Source: a virus (taxonomy: Duplodnaviria; Heunggongvirae; Uroviricota; Caudoviricetes). Taken from it: a stretch of 64,000 nt of DNA. Each line of letters begins with the position of its first letter. Positions within the stretch are counted from its first letter, which is position 1. Of the stretch, positions 5,725-62,305 are shown one piece after another. The stretch lies in the IMG/VR virus record IMGVR_UViG_3300042398_001452; one strand, written 5' to 3'. The notes under the pieces were generated by a model, which ran no database searches, had not been told where the DNA came from, and worked only from the letters and a program-made list of their open reading frames with translations. Position numbers and translations under genes: made by a program.

Positions 5725-6597
5725 ATGACAAATTTAAAGCACCACGTTTTCCAACAGTCAGTTACAGGACGTAACGAAGTAGTAGACGCTTACCTAAGCG
5801 AAATCAACAAAATCTCTCCGATCACTGCGGAAGAGGAAAAAACATTATGCAGTCGAATTATCAATGGTGGAGACGAAAGAGCTCGTCAAAGATTTGTCGA
5901 GGGTAACTTAAAAATCGTTGTATCAATCGCAAAGCAGTATCAAGGTACGGGTCTAGAATTAATGGACTTGATAAACGAAGGTAATGTCGGTTTGGTTAAG
6001 GCGTCACAGTTCTACGACCCTAGTGTTAAAGAAAAATACACCGACAGTGGTAAAACTGTTCGTTTTGTATCCTTCGCAGTTTGGTGGGTTCGTCAGGCAA
6101 TCTTAGAGGCGGTAAAAGAAAAAGGTCGTATAGTTAAAGTACCACAAAATCAACTAAACGCTCAAAGAAAGATCGCTAAGGAAATGGACCAAATCATGAA
6201 GACCGAAGGATACACCTCAGTCGAAATGGCAGCGGAATCTTTAGGTTTCGAACCGGACAAATACCAAACACAATCATCGGTTTCGCTAAGCACACCAATC
6301 GGAGAAGAAGACTTCACCCTAGGCGATACAATGTCTGACGGAACAGTTTCAGATGCGGGATTAGAAAAACTAAGTTTCATTAAACAAATCTCCGCAGTAC
6401 TAAGCACCTTAGACGAAAGAGAAAACTTCGTTATCTCCAACTGGTTCGGTATCAACGGTCAATCTATAAAAAGAAAAGATGAGATCGCAAAAGAACTCGG
6501 AGTATCTCAAGAACGTATAGAACAAATCTACCACAAAGGAATTCGAAAACTTAAAGCTTCGAGCCGATCACGATTATTAAAGCCTTTCGTTTCATAG
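5725..6597 (+). CDS. sigma-70 family RNA polymerase sigma factor (phage-encoded), 290 aa
   Basis: Region 2 signature (LINEGNVGLVKA...FVSFAVWWVRQAI) and region 4.2 HTH (KDEIAKELGVSQERIEQIYHKGIRKLK). EPM upstream. Confidence 0.8.
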   Translation: MTNLKHHVFQQSVTGRNEVVDAYLSEINKISPITAEEEKTLCSRIINGGDERARQRFVEGNLKIVVSIAKQYQGTGLELMDLINEGNVGLVKASQFYDPSVKEKYTDSGKTVRFVSFAVWWVRQAILEAVKEKGRIVKVPQNQLNAQRKIAKEMDQIMKTEGYTSVEMAAESLGFEPDKYQTQSSVSLSTPIGEEDFTLGDTMSDGTVSDAGLEKLSFIKQISAVLSTLDERENFVISNWFGINGQSIKRKDEIAKELGVSQERIEQIYHKGIRKLKASSRSRLLKPFVS

Positions 6598-6764: not shown

Positions 6765-6800
6765 GGGGTCCCCACCCGGAGGCCGCGCACGCGTAGGAGG
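6765..6800. repeat. GCH copy 2
   Basis: GGGGTCCCCACCCGGAGGCCGCGCACGCGTAGGAGG, 5' of EPM 6819. Confidence 0.55.
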
Positions 6801-8053: not shown

Positions 8054-8359
8054 ATGAAAAACCAAATGACAGCAGAACAGAAGGCGAAAAAAGCAGCAGC
8101 TAACAAAGCTTACCGTGAGCGTAAAAAAATGAAAGCTCAAAACTGGATGGAGCTCGACAAGTTCGAAATGAGCTTTGAACATAAAATTCGCCTTTTCAAA
8201 AACCTTAAACTGGAAATCACAAACTCCTACTGTGCGAGTCCAGGTACGGTCTTAAAGTTTGAAAGAATATCGAACGAAGACAACTTGATAGTTTTCCGAG
8301 TACGCCGCACCGGACGAAGAACTTTCTTCACCACCTCTGAAGAACTAACCGTTAGTTAG
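8054..8359 (+). CDS. member A of a 4-copy paralogous family of basic about 100-aa proteins (KAKKAAANKAYRERKK...RVRRTGRRTFFTT)
   Basis: Paralogs at 11083, 14929 and 16281 share NWMELDKFEMSFEHKIRLFKNLKLE and RVRRTGRRTFFTT. EPM upstream. Confidence 0.7.
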   Translation: MKNQMTAEQKAKKAAANKAYRERKKMKAQNWMELDKFEMSFEHKIRLFKNLKLEITNSYCASPGTVLKFERISNEDNLIVFRVRRTGRRTFFTTSEELTVS

Positions 8360-11082: not shown

Positions 11083-11394
11083 ATGAAAAAGGAAATGACA
11101 GCAGAACAAAAAGCAAAAAAGGCGGAGGCGAACAAGGCGTACAGAGAGCGCAAAAAAATGAAATCCCAAAACTGGATGGAATTGGATAAGTTCGAAATGA
11201 GTTTTGAACATAAAATCCGACTTTTTAAAAATCTTAAACTTGAGGATAGCAATTCCTACTGCGCTTCCCCGAACACGGTTTTGAGATTTGAAAAACTAAC
11301 CAATAACGATAATATAATCGTTTATCGGGTTCGCCGCACAGGTCGTCGAACTTTCTTCACCACATCCAACCACCTAGTCGCACCGGTTCAATAA
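11083..11394 (+). CDS. member B of the 4-copy basic-protein paralog family
   Basis: MKKEMTAEQKAKKAEANKAYRERKK...RVRRTGRRTFFTT. EPM upstream. Confidence 0.7.
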   Translation: MKKEMTAEQKAKKAEANKAYRERKKMKSQNWMELDKFEMSFEHKIRLFKNLKLEDSNSYCASPNTVLRFEKLTNNDNIIVYRVRRTGRRTFFTTSNHLVAPVQ

Positions 11395-13633: not shown

Positions 13634-14137
13634 ATGAAACACATTAAATTATTTGAGGGATTCATGAAGAATCCAAATCCTTATAAGGACATAACAGAAA
13701 GAGGTGAGTCTGTTTTCTTATTCCACGAAGAAGATTCTATTTGGTTTGGAATATTTCCAGATAATGTTGCGGAGGATCTTAAATATGCTTCTGAAGATTA
13801 TATGAAACATGCAATATCTAAAGGTTTAGGAGAGGAATATTACGATGTTTTTGTTGACCGAAGAGAAGGACTAGCTTATGTTGAATGGGAAGGTAAAAAT
13901 GGATGGAATGCTTGTACCCCAGGAGAAATTGATGTAAACGATTATAATTATGTTATGATGCCAGATGGAACTGAAATAGAAATTAATCCATCTGCTAAAT
14001 ATTCATCTCTTCCTTTATTTGCTTTAGAAAGAGGAATGATAACACACTATCAAGGAAACCACGGTAATGAACCTATGACTGTTCGAGAATACATGGATCA
14101 TTTAGAAAGTGGAAAATCAGATTGGTATTCTATGTAA
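13634..14137 (+). CDS. leader-family protein (N-terminus MKHIKLFEGF), 167 aa
   Basis: Carries the conserved N-terminal decapeptide shared by 17 proteins in this window. EPM upstream. Confidence 0.65.
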   Translation: MKHIKLFEGFMKNPNPYKDITERGESVFLFHEEDSIWFGIFPDNVAEDLKYASEDYMKHAISKGLGEEYYDVFVDRREGLAYVEWEGKNGWNACTPGEIDVNDYNYVMMPDGTEIEINPSAKYSSLPLFALERGMITHYQGNHGNEPMTVREYMDHLESGKSDWYSM

Positions 14138-14287: not shown

Positions 14288-14333
14288 CGGGCTCCCCCGG
14301 GGGACGCGTGCGTACGTGTGCACGCGTAGGCAC
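14288..14333. repeat. GCH copy 4
   Basis: GGGCTCCCCCGGGGGACGCGTGCGTACGTGTGCACGCGTAGGCAC carries a perfect 8-bp hairpin ACGCGTGC-gtacgtgt-GCACGCGT. 5' of EPM 14345. Confidence 0.6.
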
Positions 14334-14928: not shown

Positions 14929-15249
14929 ATGAAAAAGGAAATGACAATGGAACAAAAAGCAAAAAAAGCAGCAGCGAACAAAGCTTACCGTGAGCGTAAG
15001 AAAAACCAAGCGGCAACTCCGAATTGGATGGAATTGGATAAGTTCGAAATGAGTTTCACTCACAAAATTCGACTTTTCAAAAACCTCAAATTGGAAATCA
15101 CAAATTCCTACTGCGCTTCCCCTGGTACAGTTTTGAGATTTGAAAAAATTAAAAACGAAGATAATAAAATTATCTTTCGAGTACGCCGCACCGGTCGTCG
15201 CACCTTCTTCACCACCTCGACTAACCTACACGCACCAGTCGAGGCGTGA
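14929..15249 (+). CDS. member C of the 4-copy basic-protein paralog family
   Basis: MKKEMTMEQKAKKAAANKAYRERKK...RVRRTGRRTFFTT. EPM upstream. Confidence 0.7.
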   Translation: MKKEMTMEQKAKKAAANKAYRERKKNQAATPNWMELDKFEMSFTHKIRLFKNLKLEITNSYCASPGTVLRFEKIKNEDNKIIFRVRRTGRRTFFTTSTNLHAPVEA

Positions 15250-15630: not shown

Positions 15631-15673
15631 GGCTCCATGGGGGACGCGTGCGTACGTGCGCCCGCGTAGAGGG
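15631..15673. repeat. GCH copy 5
   Basis: GGCTCCATGGGGGACGCGTGCGTACGTGCGCCCGCGTAGAGGG, 5' of EPM 15684. Confidence 0.55.
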
Positions 15674-16280: not shown

Positions 16281-16583
16281 ATGAAAAAGGAAACAGTAAA
16301 AAAACCAGTTGCTAAAAAATCAGTTAAAAATTCTAACACTCCAGAATGGTTAAATCTGGAAAAGTTTGAAATGAGTTTTGAACATAAAATCAGACTTTTT
16401 AGAAATCTGAAACTTGAAACTACAAACTCCTACTGTGCAACTCCGGGTACTCCTCTTAAATTTGAAAAAATTAAAAATGAGGATAACAAGATTGTTTATC
16501 GAGTTCGCCGCAACGGTCGTAGAACTTTCTTTACAACTTGCGACCATTTGAAAAATCAAGTTGAAACAATACCCGCGGAATAA
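16281..16583 (+). CDS. member D of the 4-copy basic-protein paralog family
   Basis: ...WLNLEKFEMSFEHKIRLFRNLKLE...RVRRNGRRTFFTT. EPM upstream. Confidence 0.7.
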   Translation: MKKETVKKPVAKKSVKNSNTPEWLNLEKFEMSFEHKIRLFRNLKLETTNSYCATPGTPLKFEKIKNEDNKIVYRVRRNGRRTFFTTCDHLKNQVETIPAE

Positions 16584-17771: not shown

Positions 17772-18008
17772 ATGGAAAATCAAACAAAAGTAGATTATCT
17801 AAAAACACTCTTTACTGTAACAGAAGTACAAGATGAAGGATGTAGCTTTGAAGCTCCCGACTGCTATGAAGCATATATCTTATTTGAAGACTTTCAAGTA
17901 GGGGACACCGCGAATGATATATGTAGTGCTTCAGAATACTACTCATGCTGTGGAGACGTATTAGACAAAGACTATATGATGTGTCCAACTTGCTACGAAC
18001 ATTGCTAA
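17772..18008 (+). CDS. hypothetical Cys-rich protein (78 aa)
   Basis: Track ORF. CxxC...CC...CPTC cysteines. Terminator at 18041. Confidence 0.5.
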   Translation: MENQTKVDYLKTLFTVTEVQDEGCSFEAPDCYEAYILFEDFQVGDTANDICSASEYYSCCGDVLDKDYMMCPTCYEHC

Positions 18009-18040
18009 TTTCATAGTTCATAGATTAACAAAAAAAGAGA

Positions 18041-18062
18041 GGAGCTTTATGCTCCTTTTTTT
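18041..18062 (+). terminator. rho-independent terminator
   Basis: GGAGC-TTTAT-GCTCC plus T7. Confidence 0.7.
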
Positions 18063-18081
18063 ATGCACATCTCTTTTCCCT

Positions 18082-18096
18082 CTGCGGCACCCCAGG
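18082..18096. repeat. PAL copy (CTGCGGCACCCCAGG subtype)
   Basis: CTGCGGCACCCCAGG. Confidence 0.6.
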
Positions 18097-18128
18097 GAAT
18101 ACAATTAATATAATTAATTATTTTCAGA

Positions 18129-18172
18129 AATCATTTTTTTATTCGTGGAAAAATCCATATATTTATATAGTT
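18129..18172 (+). promoter_or_regulatory. EPM copy
   Basis: Upstream of the 18193 ORF. Confidence 0.55.
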
Positions 18173-18192
18173 AATCAATTAAACATATAAAC

Positions 18193-18372
18193 ATGAAAAA
18201 ACTAAATCTCTTCATCACACTAACTATCCTAGTATTACCAATAGGAACTATCCTAATGCTAGGAGGTAATCACATAGGAGAATACCTAGTATCAATAGGC
18301 TCTATTATGGGTCTTTATACATGCTACCTTCTAGACCAAGAAGAACAGAAAAAACCCGAAAACCAACCCTAA
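18193..18372 (+). CDS. possible 59-aa membrane peptide
   Basis: ATG after EPM copy 18129. Hydrophobic N-terminal two-thirds. Confidence 0.4.
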   Translation: MKKLNLFITLTILVLPIGTILMLGGNHIGEYLVSIGSIMGLYTCYLLDQEEQKKPENQP

Positions 18373-18415
18373 AAAATAGCCCCCTAAAAAGGGCTATATT
18401 TATATGGTAAAACCC

Positions 18416-18430
18416 CTGCGGCACCCCCTA
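18416..18430. repeat. PAL copy (subtype)
   Basis: CTGCGGCACCCCCTA. Confidence 0.5.
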
Positions 18431-18461
18431 GTGAAAAATGATAAATCTTTCATTTATCACA

Positions 18462-18478
18462 CTGAGGCACCCCCACAT
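18462..18478. repeat. PAL copy (subtype)
   Basis: CTGAGGCACCCCCACAT. Confidence 0.5.
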
Positions 18479-18510
18479 AAATACCTTTAAACTTAAAAAC
18501 TATAGCACAT

Positions 18511-18545
18511 TAAAAAGGCCCTTATTTTAAGGGCCTCTTCTTTTA
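18511..18545 (+). terminator. terminator-like hairpin at the end of the early block
   Basis: AGGCCCTTA-TTTT-AAGGGCCT followed by a T-rich stretch. Confidence 0.5.
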
Positions 18546-18880
18546 GATATGTAACCAACTAAAAGATATATGGAGAATATACAGCTAATATAGATATAAT
18601 TCACTATATAAAAAAATGATTCCAGGCCCCAAATATCACTAAAATAAGGGGCCTAAAATGAGCTTTTTAAAGGGCCCAAAATCTCTTAAAAAAGGCCCTA
18701 AAAACCCCCCATTTTAAGCCTTTTTGGCCCCCTCTAAAAGTGTGCTAATGCCCCGGGGGGTAATTCTAATTTTGGCCCCCGGCTTCGGGCTAGCAAAATT
18801 TTATGAGCCTACCAAAAGGGTCCTTTCTAGGATTTATCCCGGACTATCCAGGAGGTCTAGGTGAGTTACCTTTAAACATT

Positions 18881-18925
18881 CCTATGCGTACGCGCACACG
18901 CGTATAGGGGTGGGCCCAGGCCCTG
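18881..18925. repeat. GCH-related copy 6 inside the gene-free GC-island region
   Basis: CCTATGCGTACGCGCACACGCGTATAGGGGTGGGCCCAGGCCC. Confidence 0.45.
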
Positions 18926-19050
18926 AATATGGTGTGTGTTCTCGAATCAAAATTTTTTTTTATAGGGAAACTATAGCCTCCTAGGGCTCGCCTCGATATA
19001 CTATCTAATAGGGTGGGGTTGGGACCTAAATATGATGTGTGTTCATTTTT
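18903..19050. repeat. about 45-nt imperfect direct repeat, 2 copies (TATAGGGGTGGGCCCAGGCCCTGAATATGGTGTGTGTTC / TAATAGGGTGGGGTTGGGACCTAAATATGATGTGTGTTC)
   Basis: Copies at about 18903-18945 and about 19006-19046, each followed by an A/T tract. Confidence 0.6.
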
Positions 19051-19100
19051 GAAAATTTTACGTGCGGGGTAGAACTTGTGTTTCTAGGGCTTCGTATTAA

Positions 19101-19571
19101 TCAATTACCTGTCCAGATAGGAATTATTTTAGCATCTGAAGGTATTATTCTCTTGTATTTATCTGAAATCTGTAGGATATCATATTTAGATATTAGTCTT
19201 TGAAGTGGTGTAGATTCGCCTGATTTATTTCTTCTAATCACATTAGAGAAAGCTTTCTCTGGATCATTTTCGAAGTACATTATTTCTAGTTCAGCCCCGG
19301 AATCTTTTATTTTTTTTATTGTTGAATATGGAATATCTGTATATAATCTATAATCAAACATTATAGGACCATCTGATATTATCTGATTTTCCATTCCTGA
19401 ATTTTCTAATGCTTTTCTAATCTGATTATCATCATAGATCTTATAATCCATATTAGGGTTTTCCATCTGTATTTTCTTAGCAAGATATGATTTACCAGAT
19501 CCAGGAAGACCTAGTATTAGTATAGTTTTCTTTTTGTTGGTGTATTCTTCAAAAAGTTTAATCCTTCTCAT
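19101..19571 (-). CDS. P-loop NTPase / nucleotide-kinase-like protein with N-terminal leader MRRIKLFEEY (156 aa)
   Basis: Walker A motif ILILGLPGSGKSYLAKK directly follows the leader. Confidence 0.7.
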   Translation of the reverse strand: MRRIKLFEEYTNKKKTILILGLPGSGKSYLAKKIQMENPNMDYKIYDDNQIRKALENSGMENQIISDGPIMFDYRLYTDIPYSTIKKIKDSGAELEIMYFENDPEKAFSNVIRRNKSGESTPLQRLISKYDILQISDKYKRIIPSDAKIIPIWTGN

Positions 19572-19603
19572 CTTATCTATATTTATCTTTGAATATATAT
19601 ATT

Positions 19604-19629
19604 AAGCCAGCTTCTAGCTGGCTTTTTTG
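19604..19629 (+). terminator. rho-independent terminator (plus-strand sense) upstream of the minus-strand kinase gene
   Basis: AAGCCAGC-TTCT-AGCTGGCTT plus T6. Confidence 0.65.
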
Positions 19630-19746
19630 TGACCAATGGTTTGCCCTCCGGGCCTTAGATTTTTCTACAGTTCTTGTATGAGGCCCTGGGGGCCTTTAAT
19701 CTTAGATGGCTTTGGATTCTCTTTGATTTATGTGAATATATAATGT

Positions 19747-20862
19747 ATGAAACACCTTAAGTTATTTGAAGATTTTAATCCTTATGAGTATGAGCTTCCT
19801 AATTTCAGGGTAAGCCTAGTAAGTTCGGGCATGACTAACGGTAAATACCTTTTTAGCCTAGTTGATGGAGACGCCAATTCTTATTGGGGGATTTTCGATT
19901 TGGAAGGTCTTAAAGTCCTAGAGGATGAGATGAACACCATATGTGTCTTAGAAGAATTATTCAATGCTATAGCATACAACAAAAAAAATGATCCTGTTGT
20001 GTGGGCTACGAAAAAATGGACTAAACTTGTTATCAATAAGGTTCCAGAAGATTCTAAGCTTATTGTTCTTCTGAATAAGCTTGTGGTTGATAAAGACATA
20101 ATGGCGGATTGGGGGATTAGAAAAAATCTTAATATCTTAGGTGCTTTTCACGAATACATTGCAGATGTTGTCTCTGACGAGAATGAAATTCCAGAAGTTG
20201 ATTTTGGATTTTCGAAGGACGAGGGCATAATAATCGTTCCCGCTGAGGTGAACACTTTATACCATGAAGGAAACCATCTAGGAAGCTTCGATGACACCAC
20301 AGGGAAAATCATTAAAGACAAGAGAGATGAAAATTACTTTGCCATTGATTATGAAAACCCTTTAATGGTTAAACACGATAATAATTACACAGATCCTAAA
20401 TTCTGGAATGCTCCTCCTGATAACAAAGAATGGATTACTACCCCTATAAATTTTGATGACATAGAGCCTTATATGCCATCCATCATAGAAGGAGGAGCTC
20501 CTAAAGCATTTTTAAAGGTCATAGAAAAGTATAAGGGCATAAGAGACAGAAAGCCAACCATAAGAAAAATACCAACATTCATCGAAGGGGTTGAGAAGGG
20601 ACTTCTTAGGGATTATGGAAATGATTTAGAATTTAAGAAATTCCTAGAAGAGACCGATTACATTCAATTGGTGGACCAGATAGAGAAAGAAGAGACTAAA
20701 TTACGAAGAGAAAGATCACCGGAGAAATTATTGATCCTCAAATCCATATTGGATAAAAAAGAGGTGCTTATTAATTCATGGGAAGATAGACTTCCTATTG
20801 ACTTTATTAAAATGGAGAGAAGCGGTCTGGGTATAACCAGATTTAATTACGGTCTTAAATAG
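19747..20862 (+). CDS. leader-family protein (MKHLKLFEDF), 371 aa
   Basis: Track ORF. Leader decapeptide at N-terminus. C-terminus ..GITRFNYGLK loosely resembles the shared ..RF tail. Confidence 0.7.
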   Translation: MKHLKLFEDFNPYEYELPNFRVSLVSSGMTNGKYLFSLVDGDANSYWGIFDLEGLKVLEDEMNTICVLEELFNAIAYNKKNDPVVWATKKWTKLVINKVPEDSKLIVLLNKLVVDKDIMADWGIRKNLNILGAFHEYIADVVSDENEIPEVDFGFSKDEGIIIVPAEVNTLYHEGNHLGSFDDTTGKIIKDKRDENYFAIDYENPLMVKHDNNYTDPKFWNAPPDNKEWITTPINFDDIEPYMPSIIEGGAPKAFLKVIEKYKGIRDRKPTIRKIPTFIEGVEKGLLRDYGNDLEFKKFLEETDYIQLVDQIEKEETKLRRERSPEKLLILKSILDKKEVLINSWEDRLPIDFIKMERSGLGITRFNYGLK

Positions 20863-20986
20863 ATTATTTTAATGACTATGCTGAAAAGAGTCCCTATGGA
20901 CCTTGAACACTGGATGCTTTGATTCTCTTTAGGATGTGCATATGGTTAGCCTAGATATAATGGATATATAATATAAAACAAAAGAG

Positions 20987-22380: not shown

Positions 22381-22381
22381 G

Positions 22382-23445: not shown

Positions 23446-23866
23446 GGGCCCGCTTTGGATTTGACAGGCGGAGGTAGTTCTTTGAAATGATGCAGGCAGG
23501 GTTAGATTGGAAATCCTTAATCACCTATCGAACAATAAACGCAAACGTTTACAACACCGAGGATATCATGAGTATCCCAACTTCTCTTACTCGCGTAGCG
23601 GTAGCAGAGGAGGCTGAGTTGCTAATGGCAGCTTAACCGGCGGGCCGCACCGGCCTAGGAACAGAAAGGTGATGGTGGAGTCTGGTCTTACCTTAAAGAC
23701 CGAAACGGAAATTCGGCTCATACCGAAGAGTACACAGACTGAGCATTAAGTTTGTAATAAAAGAAATGCAAAAAAGTTTGTCCGTGTCGAACAACGGACT
23801 AAGCCTGTGAATGAGTTTCCTGAGCATTCGATCTGGACGAGGGTTCGACTCCCTCCGGGTCCACCA
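23446..23866 (+). ncRNA. ssrA: tmRNA (transfer-messenger RNA), about 421 nt, with encoded CCA
   Basis: 5' end GGGCCCGCUUUGGAUUUGACAGG resembles the canonical tmRNA 5' end GGGGCUGAUUCUGGAUUCGACGGG. The 3' end has T-arm GAGGGUUCGACUCCCUC and acceptor CGGGUCC-ACCA pairing with the 5' GGGCCCG. An internal reading frame ends with TAA at 23634-23636 (..AEEAELLMAA) followed by a GC hairpin, as in tmRNA tag regions. A terminator follows the CCA. Confidence 0.75.
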
Positions 23867-36596: not shown

Positions 36597-36827
36597 ATGA
36601 AGATTCAACTTAGAAATCTTGGACTGTGGACTATTATCGGGATGATAATGGTATACATCCTATCAATGAATTTATTCTTTGAATATGTTATCAATAGAGA
36701 GGTGCCTCAAATTATTCAAGCAGCCGGACTATTGATATCAATGGCTTACACCGTGTTCATGATAAGGATAATCGTTTGGAACGTATCCAGATTAATAAAC
36801 ATAAAAAAAGAAAAACAAAATGATTAG
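36597..36827 (+). CDS. small membrane protein (76 aa; track ORF 36501..36827 trimmed to ATG 36597)
   Basis: MKIQLRNLGLWTIIGMIMVYIL... is hydrophobic. Confidence 0.5.
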   Translation: MKIQLRNLGLWTIIGMIMVYILSMNLFFEYVINREVPQIIQAAGLLISMAYTVFMIRIIVWNVSRLINIKKEKQND

Positions 36828-37722
36828 TTTAGTTATAATAGTAATATCCCTAATAGTAGCAGGGATTAAATTTTTAAATGCTTTTAGAAATGATGATTCA
36901 AAAGGCAAAACTTTTGCAATCGTTATAGCGGTTGTTGGTATTTTAGTAGGATTAGTACAGCCTTTCTCATTCGAAAGAATTGATGCGGGGAACAAGGGAC
37001 TAAAAGTTAATTTAACGGGATCTGAAAGAGGAGTATCTTCATACCAATATAAAACAGGTTGGGTATTTTATAATGTTTGGACAGAGCAGGTAAAAGAATT
37101 CCCTTTATTCCAACAACACATCGAATACGATGCTCAAACTGTAATTACAAAAGGAGGATTTGCAGCTACCATTAAACCCTCGTTTAATTATTCATTACGT
37201 GAAGATGCTATTGGTGAGATGTTTGTCAACTTGAGATTAGACATTAAGGAAGTTGAACAAGGATGGTTAAAGAATGCTATCGTTTCATCTGTTAATGATG
37301 TTGCTAACCGATGGGAAGTTGATGCTATCTTTAATAAAAGGGAAGAGTTTGAATCTGCAATTATTTTAGAATGTAACAAAAGAGTTTCTAAATGGTTTAC
37401 AGTATCTCAGTTAAGAACTAACATTATTCCACCGAAGTCATTACAACAAGCAATTGAAGGTAAAACAAAGGCTGTACAAGAAGCACAAGCTGCACAACAA
37501 AGAACGTTGGTTGCTCAGGCTGAGGCTTTAGAAAAAATGGCAATTGCAAGAGGTGACTCAGCAAAGACTATTATCAACGCAAATGCAGCTGCACTTGCAA
37601 TGAAGATCAAGCAAAAGGAATTAACTCCTTTATATGTAGAGTTTATTAAAGCTTCGGCTTGGGACGGAAAACTTCCTACAACTGTAGCAGGAGGATCCGG
37701 AACATTTTTGAATATTAAATAA
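36820..37722 (+). CDS. SPFH/band-7 (stomatin/HflK-C/prohibitin-like) membrane protein, 300 aa
   Basis: N-terminal TM helix, then a long region with a coiled-coil (QEAQAAQQRTLVAQAEALEKMAIARGDSAKTIINANAAALAM) typical of SPFH proteins. Confidence 0.6.
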   Translation: MISLVIIVISLIVAGIKFLNAFRNDDSKGKTFAIVIAVVGILVGLVQPFSFERIDAGNKGLKVNLTGSERGVSSYQYKTGWVFYNVWTEQVKEFPLFQQHIEYDAQTVITKGGFAATIKPSFNYSLREDAIGEMFVNLRLDIKEVEQGWLKNAIVSSVNDVANRWEVDAIFNKREEFESAIILECNKRVSKWFTVSQLRTNIIPPKSLQQAIEGKTKAVQEAQAAQQRTLVAQAEALEKMAIARGDSAKTIINANAAALAMKIKQKELTPLYVEFIKASAWDGKLPTTVAGGSGTFLNIK

Positions 37723-41415: not shown

Positions 41416-42279
41416 ATGAGGCAACTTAAAATTACAACATCGATTACAAATAGATCTGATAGATCCCTAGAGAAATATCTTCAAGATATTTCAAAGGAGG
41501 AAATGATTACCGCAGACGAAGAGACAAGATTGACTAGATTAATTAGAGAGGGTGATACACGGGCTCTAGATAAGATGGTTAAAGCAAATCTAAGATTCGT
41601 TGTTTCTGTAGCTAAACAATATCAACACCAAGGACTTACTCTTACAGATCTTATTAACGAGGGTAATCTTGGTCTGATAAAAGCTGCAAAGAAGTTCGAC
41701 GAAACAAGGGGGTTCAAATTTATATCATATGCTGTTTGGTGGATCAGACAAGCTATATTAGAAGCTCTTTCCGATAAAGCAAGAGTTATTCGTATACCAC
41801 TCAATCAAGTAGGTGTTCTTGGAAAAATAAACAAGGCTTATTCTAAATTAGAACAAGATCTTGGGAGAGCTCCTACAACAGAAGAGATATCAGAAGAAAT
41901 TGACATTGCAGATCATAAGATAAAAGAAACCTTAATGACCTCAAGAAATCATGTTTCTTATGATGCTCCTATGGGTGGTGACGATGAAAATTCATCGATG
42001 ATAGATCTATTGACCAATAAGGATTTCCCGTCAACAGATTCAGTTGTAATTGAAGAGTCACTAAGAATTGATATAGAAAGAACATTAGACACTTTAGATC
42101 CTAAATGCCGTGAGATTATAAAATTAAATTATGGTATAGGATATACACACCCAAGGTCTCTTGATGAAATAGGTGAAAAATATTCATTGACTAGAGAAAG
42201 GGTTAGACAAATAAAAGAAAAAGGATTAAAAAAATTAAGAGCACAAGCTCGTACTAAGATATTAAAACAATATCTATAG
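41416..42279 (+). CDS. sigma-70 family sigma factor (RpoD/RpoS-like, with regions 1.2, 2, 3 and 4), 287 aa
   Basis: YLQDISKEEMITADEE (region 1.2), LINEGNLGLIKAAKKFD..FISYAVWWIRQAI (region 2), EIGEKYSLTRERVRQIKEKGLKKLR (region 4.2). Confidence 0.85.
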   Translation: MRQLKITTSITNRSDRSLEKYLQDISKEEMITADEETRLTRLIREGDTRALDKMVKANLRFVVSVAKQYQHQGLTLTDLINEGNLGLIKAAKKFDETRGFKFISYAVWWIRQAILEALSDKARVIRIPLNQVGVLGKINKAYSKLEQDLGRAPTTEEISEEIDIADHKIKETLMTSRNHVSYDAPMGGDDENSSMIDLLTNKDFPSTDSVVIEESLRIDIERTLDTLDPKCREIIKLNYGIGYTHPRSLDEIGEKYSLTRERVRQIKEKGLKKLRAQARTKILKQYL

Positions 42280-48147: not shown

Positions 48148-49410
48148 CTATTTCTTTTTAAAAAAATCCTTCCAATCAACTTCCACTGGGGAATATCCAG
48201 AAGCTACTAATTTTCTAACTTCCTGTAGAGCTTTATCTGTAGAGCTTCCTTTTTTGTAAAGTCTATCCCAAGATCCGTCTTTTTTCCTACTCTGATTGTT
48301 CATTAGATCTATAGCAGTTACAGCTCCCTGTGCATTTGGATTTTTACCAACTAATTTTTTAATAGATTCCTTTTGCTTCCATAATGTTTCCTGTATAATA
48401 ACCGTCCACTTATTAGCAACAATAGTTTCTGCATTTTTTATAACATATTTAGGATCTTTATATTCTTCAGGTACTGCTATATCAAGTCTGTCGCCTATGT
48501 TCATTATTTTTACTCCGGTTTTTCTTTCTTCGTATCTTCCAGAATAATATGACTTTATTTTTTTAAATCCTAATGTTGGTAATACTCCAGTAATAGCACG
48601 CATATCGAAAAGGGTAGATCTAACCGTATGTTGTGTACAGTTAGAAAAAAGAAGATTGTAACTTTTATTGCTAGCTCCTATTACTGCAGTTGGTACATCC
48701 TTAACCTTTTTTTTCGCCCAATCACCAACTATTTTTTTAAAGTTGTCGTATTCTTTTTTGTTCATTTTTATTACGACTGATTGTTTTTTGAGATGATTTA
48801 ATTCGGAGCATACTTGATTATACATTGTTTGAGAATACTCTGGGTATATCTTTTCCCCTGTTTTAGTATCACCAACACCACCTAAAAGAACTTTATCTAT
48901 ATCAGCTTTCTCGGGCATTGCATTTATTTGATATTTAGGCTCTTTTAAAGACCAAGCTTGTAGGTGACCGAATCCTCCTCCTGCATCTTTTTGGCCCATC
49001 TCGAAGTAATCAACTACTACCGGATACTGGAACTCTTTTTTAGCATACGCCTTAATTTCTTGTTCCATTGGCATATCAGTTTCTGTGTTGTACCAATTAC
49101 CTCCCCAAACAAAATAATTACATCCTTGTTTTTTAGCTGCTAAGAAAGCTTCCTTTCTAGTTTTTTTGGATGACATATTACAAGATTTCCCTTGCTTTAT
49201 TGAATTGTAATAGAAATCTTTTAATATTCCTTTTCCCCAATTAAAAGAATCGTCGCCTTTCTTTTTTAAATTGGAGACGGTTTTTTTCCCTGTATCCAAA
49301 AGCTTATTTGCAAAATCTTTATAATCATCAAAATTCCAATATTCATTTATATCTTCACTAGATGATTCACTGATATTATTCCAATCTTTAAAAGATTTAA
49401 GATGCTTCAT
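48148..49410 (-). CDS. leader-family protein (MKHLKSFKDW), 420 aa
   Basis: Track ORF on the minus strand with leader at N-terminus. Confidence 0.7.
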   Translation of the reverse strand: MKHLKSFKDWNNISESSSEDINEYWNFDDYKDFANKLLDTGKKTVSNLKKKGDDSFNWGKGILKDFYYNSIKQGKSCNMSSKKTRKEAFLAAKKQGCNYFVWGGNWYNTETDMPMEQEIKAYAKKEFQYPVVVDYFEMGQKDAGGGFGHLQAWSLKEPKYQINAMPEKADIDKVLLGGVGDTKTGEKIYPEYSQTMYNQVCSELNHLKKQSVVIKMNKKEYDNFKKIVGDWAKKKVKDVPTAVIGASNKSYNLLFSNCTQHTVRSTLFDMRAITGVLPTLGFKKIKSYYSGRYEERKTGVKIMNIGDRLDIAVPEEYKDPKYVIKNAETIVANKWTVIIQETLWKQKESIKKLVGKNPNAQGAVTAIDLMNNQSRKKDGSWDRLYKKGSSTDKALQEVRKLVASGYSPVEVDWKDFFKKK

Positions 49411-50026: not shown

Positions 50027-51007
50027 ATGGTAAAGAAAAAAGGACCCATATGTATGTTTATAGAGAGAAACTATAAACACTTTAATGCAGCTGCCTTAAA
50101 AGATGCAGCTATAGGATACGAAAAACATATAGATAGCGGAGGAAAGATGCTCGTGTCTCTAGCAGGTGCAATGAGTACAGCAGAGCTTGGTATTTCACTT
50201 GCTGAAATGATAAGAGAAGGAAAAATTGATATAATATCTTGTACAGGAGCAAACTTAGAGGAGGATTTAATGAACCTAGTAGCTCACTCTCACTACAAGA
50301 GAATACCTAACTACCGCGATTTAACTCCTCAGCAAGAAAGGGATCTTTTAGATAAGGGACTGAATAGAGTTACAGATACATGTATACCCGAGGAAGAAGC
50401 TTTTAGAAGACTACAGACCCACATATATGATATTTGGAAAGAAGCTGAAGATAAAGGAGAAAGATATTTTCCGCATGAATACATGTACAAATTAATCAAT
50501 AGTGGAATACTAGCTCAATATTATGAGATAGATCCTAAGGATTCTTGGATGATTGAAGCAGCTAAAAGAAATCTACCGATGGTTGTTCCTGGATGGGAGG
50601 ATTCAACAATGGGAAATATATTTGCTTCTTATGTTATTAAAGGTGAACTAAAAGCTGAAACAGTTAAAAGTGGTATAGAGTATATGGTAGATCTTAGCCA
50701 TTGGTACAGAAATAATTGTTCACCGATGGGTGTCGGTTTCTTTCAAATAGGAGGGGGAATTGCTGGGGATTTTCCTATATGTGTTGTTCCTATGATGTAT
50801 CAGGATCTTGAATGGGAGGATGTTCCTTTCTGGTCTTATTTCTGTCAGATCTCTGATTCGACTACATCATACGGTTCTTATTCAGGAGCAGTACCAAACG
50901 AGAAGATTACATGGGGAAAATTGGATGCAGATACACCAAAATTTGTTATTGAGTCCGATGCAACAATAGTTGCTCCTCTAATGTTCGCTTGGATATTAAA
51001 TAAGTGA
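50027..51007 (+). CDS. deoxyhypusine synthase-like / homospermidine synthase-like NAD-dependent aminobutyl transferase, 326 aa
   Basis: KIDIISCTGANLEEDL (cf. DHS V-D-V-L-V-T-T-A-G-G-V-E-E-D-L), FFQIGGGIAGD, and C-terminal GAVPNEKITWGKLDADTPKFVIESDATIVAPLMFAWIL (cf. DHS [35 protein letters not shown]). Confidence 0.75.
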   Translation: MVKKKGPICMFIERNYKHFNAAALKDAAIGYEKHIDSGGKMLVSLAGAMSTAELGISLAEMIREGKIDIISCTGANLEEDLMNLVAHSHYKRIPNYRDLTPQQERDLLDKGLNRVTDTCIPEEEAFRRLQTHIYDIWKEAEDKGERYFPHEYMYKLINSGILAQYYEIDPKDSWMIEAAKRNLPMVVPGWEDSTMGNIFASYVIKGELKAETVKSGIEYMVDLSHWYRNNCSPMGVGFFQIGGGIAGDFPICVVPMMYQDLEWEDVPFWSYFCQISDSTTSYGSYSGAVPNEKITWGKLDADTPKFVIESDATIVAPLMFAWILNK

Positions 51008-60679: not shown

Positions 60680-62305
60680 GTGAAATATAGTTTAAGAATA
60701 AAAATCACACTAGCCATTGCTTCTATCCTAATGATTTGTTATATGTGTGTTAAAATTGCGGTTCTTGCTGAATTACGAGAATCTACAGAAACTACTAGAT
60801 GGATAGAATTTTTTGGCGTTATTTCGTTAATTCCTATATCAATCCTGTTAATCAAAGACTTTATTAATTCTACTAAAGATTCAGTATCTAAAGATTCTGT
60901 GAATAAGATGATTGAACTTGAGAATTTTTTAGATTCATCTGCTATTATTTCTAAAGCTGATAAAAACGGAAAGATAACTTATGTGAATAATAAATTTACG
61001 GAAGTCTCTGGTTATTCATTAGAAGATGTAATTGGTAAAGATCATAATATCGTAAACAGTGGAACACATCCGAAAGAATTCTGGACAGACATGTATCGTA
61101 CTGTTGTTAAAGAAAGAAAGATCTGGAACTCTGTATGTACTAATCGCACAAAAGATGGTTCTTTATACTATGTAGATACATTCATTAAATGTGAGTTTGA
61201 CGAAAAAGGCAATCTTCAGGGGTTTATGTCAATACGTCAAGACGTAACAGAGATAAAAAGAAAAGAGATAGAGATATCTAATAGAATGAATGCTATTAAC
61301 AGATCAAATGCTGTTATTGAATTTGATTTAGAGGGCAATATAAGATTTGCAAACGATTCATTTCTAAATGTATTAGGATATTCGCAGGAAGAAATCGTAG
61401 GGAAGCATCATAGTATATTTATTGAAGATGATGTAAAAGCGACTGATGAATATCATAATTTTTGGAAAACTTTAGGTAAAGGCGAATTCTTCAGTGGTGA
61501 AATCACAAGAAAGAAAAAAGACGGTACGTTAATTTATCTACAAGCAACATATAACCCTATCATAGGACCCGATGGAAAACCATATCGAGTAATGAAAATT
61601 GCTACTGATATTACTGAAAGTTATAATCAACAGAAAGAGATAGAAAAGAAAAATACATATCTTGAGCATGCTGCTAAAATACTTAGACACGATATGCACA
61701 GTGGAATTAACACATATATGCCTAGAGGTCTAAGCTCTTTAGATAGAAGATTATCAGAAGAACAAATAAAGGAACTTAAAATTGAAGCTCCTATTAAAAT
61801 GATTAAGGAAGGCCTTCGACACACACAAAAAGTTTATAAAGGGGTTTATGAGTTTACAAATCTTGTAAAGAAAGACGTAGTTCTCAATAGAGAAAAATGT
61901 AATCTAAAAAATATTCTTGAAGACTACTTATCAGCAACTGCATATAGACCGCAGGTTGATTTAGGAGATTTGGGAGAATTAAGCGTTAATGAGGCTCTTT
62001 TTTGTACTGCATTAGATAATTTAATAAGAAACGGATTAAAATACAATGACAGTAATAATAAGATAGTAAAAATATACAGAATAGATGATATATTATATGT
62101 AGAAGATAACGGTAGAGGATTAAGCTCTGAGGAGTTTAAATTACTTTCCCAACCATATACTCGTAAGGAAGGGCAGAAAGAATCTGGTACTGGATTAGGA
62201 TTAAATATATGTATAGCAATATTAGAGGAACACGGATTTAGTGTCTCATGTGATAGACTTCCTGAAATTGGAAGCCAAATAAAAATAAATTTAAAAAATG
62301 ATTGA
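60680..62305 (+). CDS. sensor histidine kinase with N-terminal TM anchor, two PAS domains, HisKA and HATPase_c, 541 aa
   Basis: Two PAS-like segments (GKITYVNNKFTEVSGYSLEDVIGKDHNIV...; GNIRFANDSFLNVLGYSQEEIVGKHHSIF...), H-box LRHDMHSGIN, and ATPase motifs LIRNGLKYN / VEDNGRGL / GTGLGLNI. Confidence 0.8.
   Translation: MKYSLRIKITLAIASILMICYMCVKIAVLAELRESTETTRWIEFFGVISLIPISILLIKDFINSTKDSVSKDSVNKMIELENFLDSSAIISKADKNGKITYVNNKFTEVSGYSLEDVIGKDHNIVNSGTHPKEFWTDMYRTVVKERKIWNSVCTNRTKDGSLYYVDTFIKCEFDEKGNLQGFMSIRQDVTEIKRKEIEISNRMNAINRSNAVIEFDLEGNIRFANDSFLNVLGYSQEEIVGKHHSIFIEDDVKATDEYHNFWKTLGKGEFFSGEITRKKKDGTLIYLQATYNPIIGPDGKPYRVMKIATDITESYNQQKEIEKKNTYLEHAAKILRHDMHSGINTYMPRGLSSLDRRLSEEQIKELKIEAPIKMIKEGLRHTQKVYKGVYEFTNLVKKDVVLNREKCNLKNILEDYLSATAYRPQVDLGDLGELSVNEALFCTALDNLIRNGLKYNDSNNKIVKIYRIDDILYVEDNGRGLSSEEFKLLSQPYTRKEGQKESGTGLGLNICIAILEEHGFSVSCDRLPEIGSQIKINLKND

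Follow-up and report, generated by a model that had tools for sequence, protein, structure and literature searches.

A gene-free, motif-dense boundary between two gene blocks of an uncultured freshwater phage and its possible role as a transcriptional control region

In a 64-kb stretch of viral DNA (64,000 nucleotides; hereafter the window), a 730-base region at positions 18373-19100 was confirmed to be a real, gene-free and motif-dense boundary between two differently organised gene blocks. All coordinates are those of the window unless another locus is named. The region is more structured than could be seen by the original prediction, which had proposed a terminus, pac site or origin. We tentatively favour reading it as a conserved transcriptional boundary or control region of promoter/stem-loop cassettes, which would combine a small RNA gene, a phased array of G/C blocks, a single-copy core and, at its right end, a hot spot of gene exchange. 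In support of this reading, the core is 88% identical across lineages whose flanking genes are non-homologous.

According to this reading, about 30 small early-type cassettes lie to the left of the region and the next block, with a different promoter-like signal, to its right. Rightward early transcription would end at two intrinsic terminators, and an inverted cassette that lacks an open reading frame (ORF), with the array upstream of its promoter, would yield a non-coding RNA of ~70 nucleotides (nt). The array (~120 bp) would be intrinsically curved or protein-wrapped DNA. Combined with the core (~110-120 bp, with three short inverted repeats) it could form a cis-acting site, present once per genome and resembling an operator or enhancer, which would insulate the two blocks and control two outward-facing promoters. 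The small RNA would act on early transcripts or on the array/core site. Finally, a duplicated half-module and a reversed kinase-like gene at the right end would have been inserted recently, when repeated promoter modules recombined with one another.

The virus belongs to a freshwater group that is AT-rich, has no cultured relative, and carries mostly unannotated genes, a transfer-messenger RNA (tmRNA) gene and two sigma factor genes on contigs of up to 206 kb. A landmark that keeps its place amid the exchange of flanking genes offers an anchor for comparing these genomes, and a concrete site at which to seek an early-to-later switch, a phage small RNA or a replication origin.

Two gene blocks and the stretch that separates them

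The window has a G+C content of 33% and resembles part of a large uncultured phage. Nearly all of its ORFs, many of them without any match, are on the plus strand. Contigs identical to it (100%) were present in several freshwater metagenomes, and the samples with such identity include SRR27420420 and JGI 3300042383, 3300042402 and 3300042898; deposited phages gave only weak matches at the DNA and protein levels, to metagenomic huge phages. The region itself had no match in 50,697 phage records searched with megablast and blastn.

Small genes follow one another over the left 18 kb, and each is preceded by a terminator (a hairpin followed by TTTTTTGTG), a G/C palindrome and a promoter-like word. 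G/C palindromes of the early type (CTGGGGAACCCCAGG / CTGNGGNNCCCC) occur in 17 copies in the window, all on the plus strand and all left of 18475; palindromes or hairpins of the CTGGGGAACCCCAG type sit upstream of early promoters (17 copies). The promoter-like word, termed here the class-1 early promoter, is a conserved stretch of ~45 nt (GAAATCATTTTTTTAT.TGTAGAAAAATCCATATATTAGCTATGTAA). A two-part scan detected ~28 good plus-strand copies between 329 and 18128 and no good copy further right, where two weak plus-strand copies were found at 22381 and 22780. The sole good minus-strand copy in the window is located inside the region, at 18626-18581. Within the word no TTGACA-17-TATAAT is recognisable, and sigma-70-like sites were fewer in a consensus scan than in shuffled sequences (4 versus 7.5). 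To the right, a promoter-like signal, GATATATA[AG], is present 11 times on the plus strand and twice on the minus strand, 5-25 nt upstream of many start codons; it may constitute a second promoter class. Many genes behind it start with MKHIKLFE.F. The block boundary described in the original prediction is therefore real, with class-1 promoter cassettes on its left and GATATATA[AG] genes on its right. The accompanying claim of an orientation change was not borne out, since only the gene at 19101-19571 is reversed beside the region and most later ORFs are again on the plus strand.

No ORF of 60 or more amino acids (aa) is present in 18373-19100. With eight GGCCC and four GGGCC motifs, the region holds 12 of the 24 counted over the window while spanning 1.14% of it (binomial P = 1e-17), in agreement with the motif cluster reported originally. 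The description as a GC island likewise holds (40% G+C versus 33% in the window). The true island is 18650-18950, which with 46-52% G+C falls into the top 1% of 150-nt windows and is comparable to the tmRNA gene.

To retrieve relatives, 22-23 nt of the core served as an exact search pattern; matches were found in two viral contigs (206.6 kb, IMGVR_UViG_3300036770_006296 of 206,617 nt, and 86 kb) and in eleven contigs from metagenomes. They represent ~8 distinct lineages, all with the same order of parts. A second scan of viral contigs with another core pattern found only those same two, and a protein pattern taken from the neighbouring 371-aa protein matched none of the viral contigs scanned. 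The flanks vary between lineages, with a 59-aa protein or a TerC-like protein encoded on the left and the 371-aa protein, a shorter MKHIKLFE-type protein, a 166-aa Lcl_C-like protein or others on the right. Homologues of the 371-aa protein are 74-90% identical. In the relative L005, whose 371-aa protein is 89% identical, the reversed gene is lacking and the region directly precedes the 371-aa gene. Mean pairwise identity between lineages was 0.88 for the core, 0.75 for the body of the candidate small RNA, 0.70 for the right-hand module, 0.65 for the inverted promoter, 0.60 for the terminator, 0.50 for the array, and 0.44-0.45 for the spacer and the G/C-motif pair.

This pattern bears on the view that the region is a graveyard of decayed promoter/terminator cassettes without a function of its own, or that its core is a small protein gene. 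Many pieces are indeed recognisable cassette fragments, and in most lineages one reading frame stays open through the core. However, ~8 lineages whose flanks are unrelated share the order and content of the region, and the core remains 88% identical. The graveyard version is largely refuted by this conservation pattern, and the view as a whole, including the small gene treated with the core below, is highly improbable.

A different non-coding island rich in G/C blocks lies upstream of the homologous gene in the Lake Michigan contig L010 (1575-1887; neighbour protein 79% identical). It holds GGGCCC hairpins, a G-box and GGGGG blocks, and has neither the core nor the inverted promoter.

Terminators, an inverted promoter and a candidate small RNA

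A terminator scan placed an intrinsic terminator hairpin (ATAGCCC..GGGCTAT, 18376-18397, plus strand) directly after the 59-aa early gene (18193-18372). In relatives, a hairpin followed by TTTTTTGTG is found at the matching position. The same scan predicted a bidirectional intrinsic terminator, AGGCCCTTA-TTT-TAAGGGCCT, at 18516-18536; it is one of the two hairpins that had been named originally, and the other (AGGCCCC/GGGGCCT, 18624-18655) is present as well. On the minus strand the bidirectional terminator has its better T-run (TTTTT at 18516-18512; TTTTTTGTG in relatives). Its stem letters differ between lineages while the stem is kept in every one of them, and five of the 13 pairs are changed on both sides (nine sequences). 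The sites at 18376-18397 and 18516-18536 thus have the G+C-rich hairpin and T-run of intrinsic terminators, and the latter also the compensatory stem change. Between near-identical strains the loop at 18525-18528 is inverted (TTATTTTAA in the window versus TTAAAATAA in L019 and L022) and the stem is unchanged, a difference that, read from the sequences, is a hairpin-loop flip.

At 18416-18473, two degenerate plus-strand copies of the early G/C motif, CTGCGGCACCCC (18416) and CTGAGGCACCCC (18462), flank an TGATAAAT/ATTTATCA hairpin. They correspond to the GCH-like motif noted earlier, which was found at these two positions as CTG[AC]GGCACCCC. No promoter follows the pair, which is kept in all lineages.

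The inverted early-type promoter (GGAATCATTTTTTTAT..N..CTATATTAGCT, 18581-18626, minus strand) has 1 + 3 mismatches and the canonical 14-nt spacing, and is conserved in all lineages. With AGGCCCC..GGGGCCT upstream of it, the stretch 18626-18581 amounts to a full stem-loop and promoter cassette that is inverted and devoid of an ORF. A candidate non-coding RNA of ~70 nt (70-80 nt in relatives) would be transcribed between this promoter and the bidirectional terminator (18512-18580, minus strand, with predicted start and end). It contains no ATG and would form a stem-loop with the conserved loop GGUUAC followed by the terminator hairpin; its predicted fold has -23 kcal/mol (z = -3.75). The body of the candidate RNA is 75% identical between lineages, compared with 44-50% in the segments next to it. 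That the inverted promoter facing the bidirectional terminator would form a unit for a ~70-nt non-coding RNA is well supported by the sequence.

In its 5' part, the candidate RNA is complementary to a copy of the consensus of the early leaders (TGTAACCAACTAAAA). Duplexes predicted between the RNA and 24 early leaders had a mean of -13.4 kcal/mol; the 5' regions of the right block, 51 in number, gave -10.05 kcal/mol (P = 4e-4), and shuffled RNAs gave -7.4 kcal/mol. A bolder proposal is that the conserved loop and stem UUUUAGUUGGUUACA of the ~70-nt RNA are complementary, with G-U wobbles, to the 5' leader of ~30 early mRNAs, that the RNA from this lone inverted early promoter tunes or shuts the whole early block, and that array and core are a new type of nucleoprotein site present once per genome. 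We regard this combination as improbable. If it were true, one phage RNA would tune the early gene block, and the nucleoprotein site would be an origin or an injection or segregation landmark specific to the group.

Short cis-encoded regulatory RNAs are known from phages, for example lambda OOP, P22 sar and P1 c4. The candidate resembles them in the arrangement of promoter, ~70 nt and terminator at a regulatory boundary and in its partial complementarity to phage mRNAs. In contrast to these RNAs, it is not antisense to one overlapping gene but matches imperfectly the leader consensus of many cassettes, and it has no sequence or Rfam relationship to them.

The phased array and the conserved core

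Over 18621-18740, G/C blocks of 3-7 nt alternate with A/T tracts, at spacings of 11-13 or 22-24 bp. The array holds the AGGCCCC/GGGGCCT hairpin (18624-18655) as well as GGGCCC, GGCCC, CCCCCC and GGCCCCC. Its best G/C period is 11.5-12 bp in seven of seven lineages, and among 6388 overlapping 120-nt windows of the 64 kb it is the top one for 11-12-bp G/C periodicity (power 6.2 versus a 99th percentile of 1.34). Sequence identity between lineages is 50%; the pattern is kept and the letters drift. Because the near-helical period is kept while the letters drift, the array is a property at the level of DNA, either curvature or protein binding on one face, and not at the level of RNA. Direct units of 21-23 bp (GGGGSCTAAAATGGCTAAAAT, two to three copies) are found in L013, L018 and L020 and are degenerate in the window. 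A G-quadruplex was rejected as a conserved property of the array: L005, L016 and L018 could form one, whereas the window and L013 could not.

The core (18735-18855) contains TAAAAGTGTGCTAATG and is unique within the window. Its mean pairwise identity of 88% in seven lineages includes 22 nt that were fixed by the search pattern. An inverted repeat, CCGGGGG (18753-18759) / CCCCCGG (18776-18782), surrounds a variable AT-rich stretch of 16 nt and is followed by the near-palindrome GGGCTAGCAAAATTTTATGAGCCT at 18787-18810 and a hairpin-capable stretch at 18824-18855. The core was absent from the cultured phages searched, and its pattern was absent from one genome per bacterial and archaeal species. 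Owing to this absence from the bacterial and archaeal genomes scanned, the core is considered neither host-derived nor an attachment-site copy.

A small protein gene in the core was rejected. The 46-aa ORF with a TTG start (18724-18864) lacks codon-position bias, its variable sites being distributed 12/8/12 with no third-position excess. The frame, open in most lineages, has no conserved start (ATG is replaced by TGG in two lineages), its stop positions differ, and L018 carries an in-frame TAG.

The core could function either as RNA or as DNA. A gene for a trans-acting structured RNA on the plus strand (~18735-18860) would account for a GC-rich island like that of the tmRNA gene, to which the core is equal in G+C content (46-52% versus 33% in the window). 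Every lineage could form three hairpins (96% of cells paired). The first of them has a variable loop between constant arms; in the third helix six of nine pairs vary only between G-U and G-C or A-U, a pattern that fits the plus strand only and would fit a plus-strand RNA without being proof of one. Yet covariation was not above that of column shuffles (the stems hardly vary, and one pair shows a double change), the fold was no better than shuffles (z = -1.34 on the plus and -0.45 on the minus strand), and loops are as conserved as stems. A search of the window with Rfam 15 gave only the tmRNA at 23446-23866 above the gathering score; for 18000-19750, inspected up to E = 5, the best hit reached 31.6 bits against a gathering score of 136, and nothing credible was found. 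No promoter or terminator that brackets the core is recognisable either, and the T9 run at 18953-18961 was rejected as a terminator, having no conserved hairpin ahead of it. Taken together, we judge an RNA gene in the core to be distinctly unlikely.

A replication origin, also part of the original prediction, would make different use of the same elements. The phased G/C blocks would be iteron-like sites for an initiator or architectural protein; the inverted promoter and the AT-rich transcribed segment behind it (18540-18620, 27-29% G+C) would provide transcriptional activation or an R-loop primer; and the GC-clamped inverted repeat around its AT-rich spacer would be a loading site. Such an origin is possible though unlikely. 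The array is unique and helically phased, with direct 21-23-bp units in relatives, the core occurs once and exceeds its surroundings in conservation, and behind the lone wrong-way promoter comes the region's most AT-rich stretch. Phage T7 uses a primary origin, and phage T4 ori(uvsY) and ori(34), that combine a promoter with an AT-rich unwinding element; iteron origins are known from lambda ori and from iteron plasmids. The region is similar to these in having a promoter followed by an AT-rich segment, phased repeats, a nearby palindrome and a single-copy conserved site. It differs in that there is no adjacent initiator, that the repeats in the window are degenerate and no true 17-22-bp iterons, and that a skew signal is missing. 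The cumulative GC skew of the 64-kb window has a local dip at 18-19 kb and is positive on both sides, without a V-shaped inflection. Moreover, no DnaA box (TTWTNCACA) was found on either strand of 18370-19100, and no gene for an initiator, helicase loader or primase was recognised beside the region, where the neighbours vary and encode small unknown proteins, TerC or a P-loop kinase-like protein.

Several points weigh against the control region that we favour. Terminator activity, promoter class and RNA ends are predictions from the sequence. Pairing of the small RNA with early leaders is weakly indicated: the commonest early leader, GTTAATCAAT, pairs only moderately with it, and where two lineages have A changed to G in the RNA template, their leaders show no matching change. 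Neither the array nor the core is linked to a regulator gene. Finally, 88% identity over 110 nt is not usual for a purely regulatory site and would also fit an origin, another essential cis-acting site or an RNA gene.

In the variable spacer beyond the core, an alternating purine-pyrimidine palindrome (TGCGTACGCGCACACGCGTA) is located at 18885-18904; it is absent from this position in most relatives. Related palindromes of 19-20 nt, of the type TGCGTACG..CGCGTA and with Z-DNA-like composition, occur at 14309-14328, 15649-15673 and ~6770-6790, in intergenic positions of the early block.

Promoter modules, gene exchange and further features of the window

The right end of the region consists of a tandem duplication of ~103 nt (18897-18999 / 19000-19100), to which belongs the direct repeat detected originally (49 nt at 18908 and 19011, 73% identical). 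The first copy is a promoter module of the next block (18906-18999, plus strand) made up of a G-box GGGTGGGCCCAGGCCC, GTGTGTGTTC, AATCAAAA-T9 and CCTAGGGCTCGCCTCGATATAC; in relatives it leads into GATATATAG..ATG of the first right-block gene. The second copy (19000-19100, plus strand), truncated at CTAGGGCTTCG, abuts the stop codon of the reversed gene. Its closest match is L005:3447-3531 (83% identical), between two other genes of L005. The reversed gene (19101-19571, minus strand) is strain-specific and encodes a 156-aa P-loop protein similar to Zeta_toxin (25.6 bits; cut-off 22.3) and AAA_33 (27 bits) of Pfam; it is absent at this locus in L005, L013, L019 and L024. Being located downstream of plus-strand promoter modules and followed by a plus-strand terminator (19604-19624), it may be subject to antisense transcription. 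This terminator and a third intergenic module (GCCCTCCGGGCC.., AGGCCCTGGGGGCCT) occupy 19604-19696 on the plus strand, upstream of the 371-aa gene. The module (19642-19696) is found twice elsewhere in L005, between other genes, and extends the zone of GGCCC hairpins.

L019 and L022 are ~99% identical to the window up to CTAGGGCTTCGCCTCG, continue with 1 kb of unrelated sequence and rejoin at 20892. To the right of CTAGGGCTTCGCCTCG, four gene contents were observed, namely those of the window and of L019/L022, the 371-aa gene only (L005), and nothing (L024). The early block is also shuffled between relatives. By these sequence comparisons, the right end of the region is a recombination junction and a hot spot of gene exchange.

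Contig ends at this junction could be taken as a sign of a physical genome landmark, be it a terminus, a terminal-repeat boundary, a pac or cos site as proposed originally, or an injection-stop region like iss of phage T5. Several short contigs do end inside the region or just right of it, and a large untranslated stretch of repeats and palindromes at the end of the early block is better conserved than the adjoining coding sequence. The true contig ends differ, however (18633 and 19088; equivalents of ~18811, ~18977 and ~19025), and they cluster at the module in which strains vary; several short contigs break here because strains differ at this module. At least eight assemblies read through (L001, L002, L013, L016, L019, L022, L023 and L024), as would also be expected in a terminally redundant genome, and the region is internal in the 86-kb contig L026, flanked by 11 kb and 74 kb. 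Neither a terminase nor a structural gene was found among the 40 ORFs scanned within 18 kb to the left and 45 kb to the right, where many ORFs have no matches. The T5 iss region, the closest architectural analogue of such a landmark, is untranslated, rich in repeats and palindromes and better conserved than its coding neighbours; it lies in the left terminal repeat, and its features include eight DnaA boxes arranged in pairs, a position within a long terminal repeat and the A1/A2 genes (Davison, bioRxiv 10.1101/866236). Both are large untranslated repeat and palindrome regions, more conserved than the flanking coding sequence, which end a first-expressed block. The region studied here differs in that paired DnaA boxes, indications of a terminal repeat or two-step injection and similarity to cultured phages are absent, and in that ordinary promoters and terminators explain part of it. 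A physical landmark thus seems quite improbable. Positive support for the terminus or pac reading was not obtained; a terminally redundant genome or a transcription-activated origin is possible.

The exchange of genes at promoter-containing modules is reminiscent of the PeSL (promoter-early stem-loop) cassettes of T4-type phages, whose GGGG..CCCC stems terminate upstream transcription and which mediate gene shuffling (PMC2839356). As in the PeSL system (Arbiol et al. 2010, PMC2839356; Comeau et al. 2014, PMC4122927), units of a promoter and a G-run/C-run stem-loop are repeated among small orphan genes, and close relatives differ at these units by gene gain, loss or replacement. Unlike PeSLs, the cassettes described here have a ~45-nt promoter word without TTGACA-17-TATAAT, and no T4 core genes were seen among the window ORFs scanned. 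The ORF-less inverted cassette, the 11.5-bp array and the unique conserved core have no counterpart in PeSLs. Shuffling by promoter/stem-loop units, known from T4-type coliphages, also operates in a very different phage group and with a different promoter.

At least ten otherwise unlike ORFs share the N-terminus MK[HY][IL]K[LY]FE.F, several of them with GATATATA[AG] upstream. They start at 13634, 19747, 25482, 27101, 27915, 28686, 29417, 34806 and 51850 on the plus strand and at 49410 on the minus strand. The claim that this leader family begins right of the region holds for most members; one already starts at 13634. The shared N-terminus could serve as a signal in targeting or translation; alternatively, it could be a recombination linker reaching into the first codons.

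The tmRNA gene (23446-23866, plus strand) was identified with Rfam RF00023 (92.7 bits) and ARAGORN. Its predicted tag peptide, ANVYNTEDIMSIPTSLTRVAVAEEAELLMAA, is unusually long, and the gene is 98% identical in L005 and 93% in L016. Two genes for sigma-70-family sigma factors are encoded on the plus strand at 5725-6597 and 41416-42279 (PHROG 351, E = 1e-52 and 3e-68). One of them sits in the early cassette block, and a link to the second promoter class may exist. The window also includes a gene for a Dda-like helicase. Accessory genes unusual for a phage are located on the plus strand at 50027-51007, 60680-62305 and 36820-37722; the products of this group are a deoxyhypusine synthase homologue (E = 1.5e-41), a PAS-domain histidine kinase and an SPFH/Band 7 protein. 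Finally, a family of ~100-aa paralogues in the early block (8054-8359, 11083-11394, 14929-15249 and 16281-16583, plus strand) is repeated along with the promoter cassettes at 69-80% nucleotide identity.

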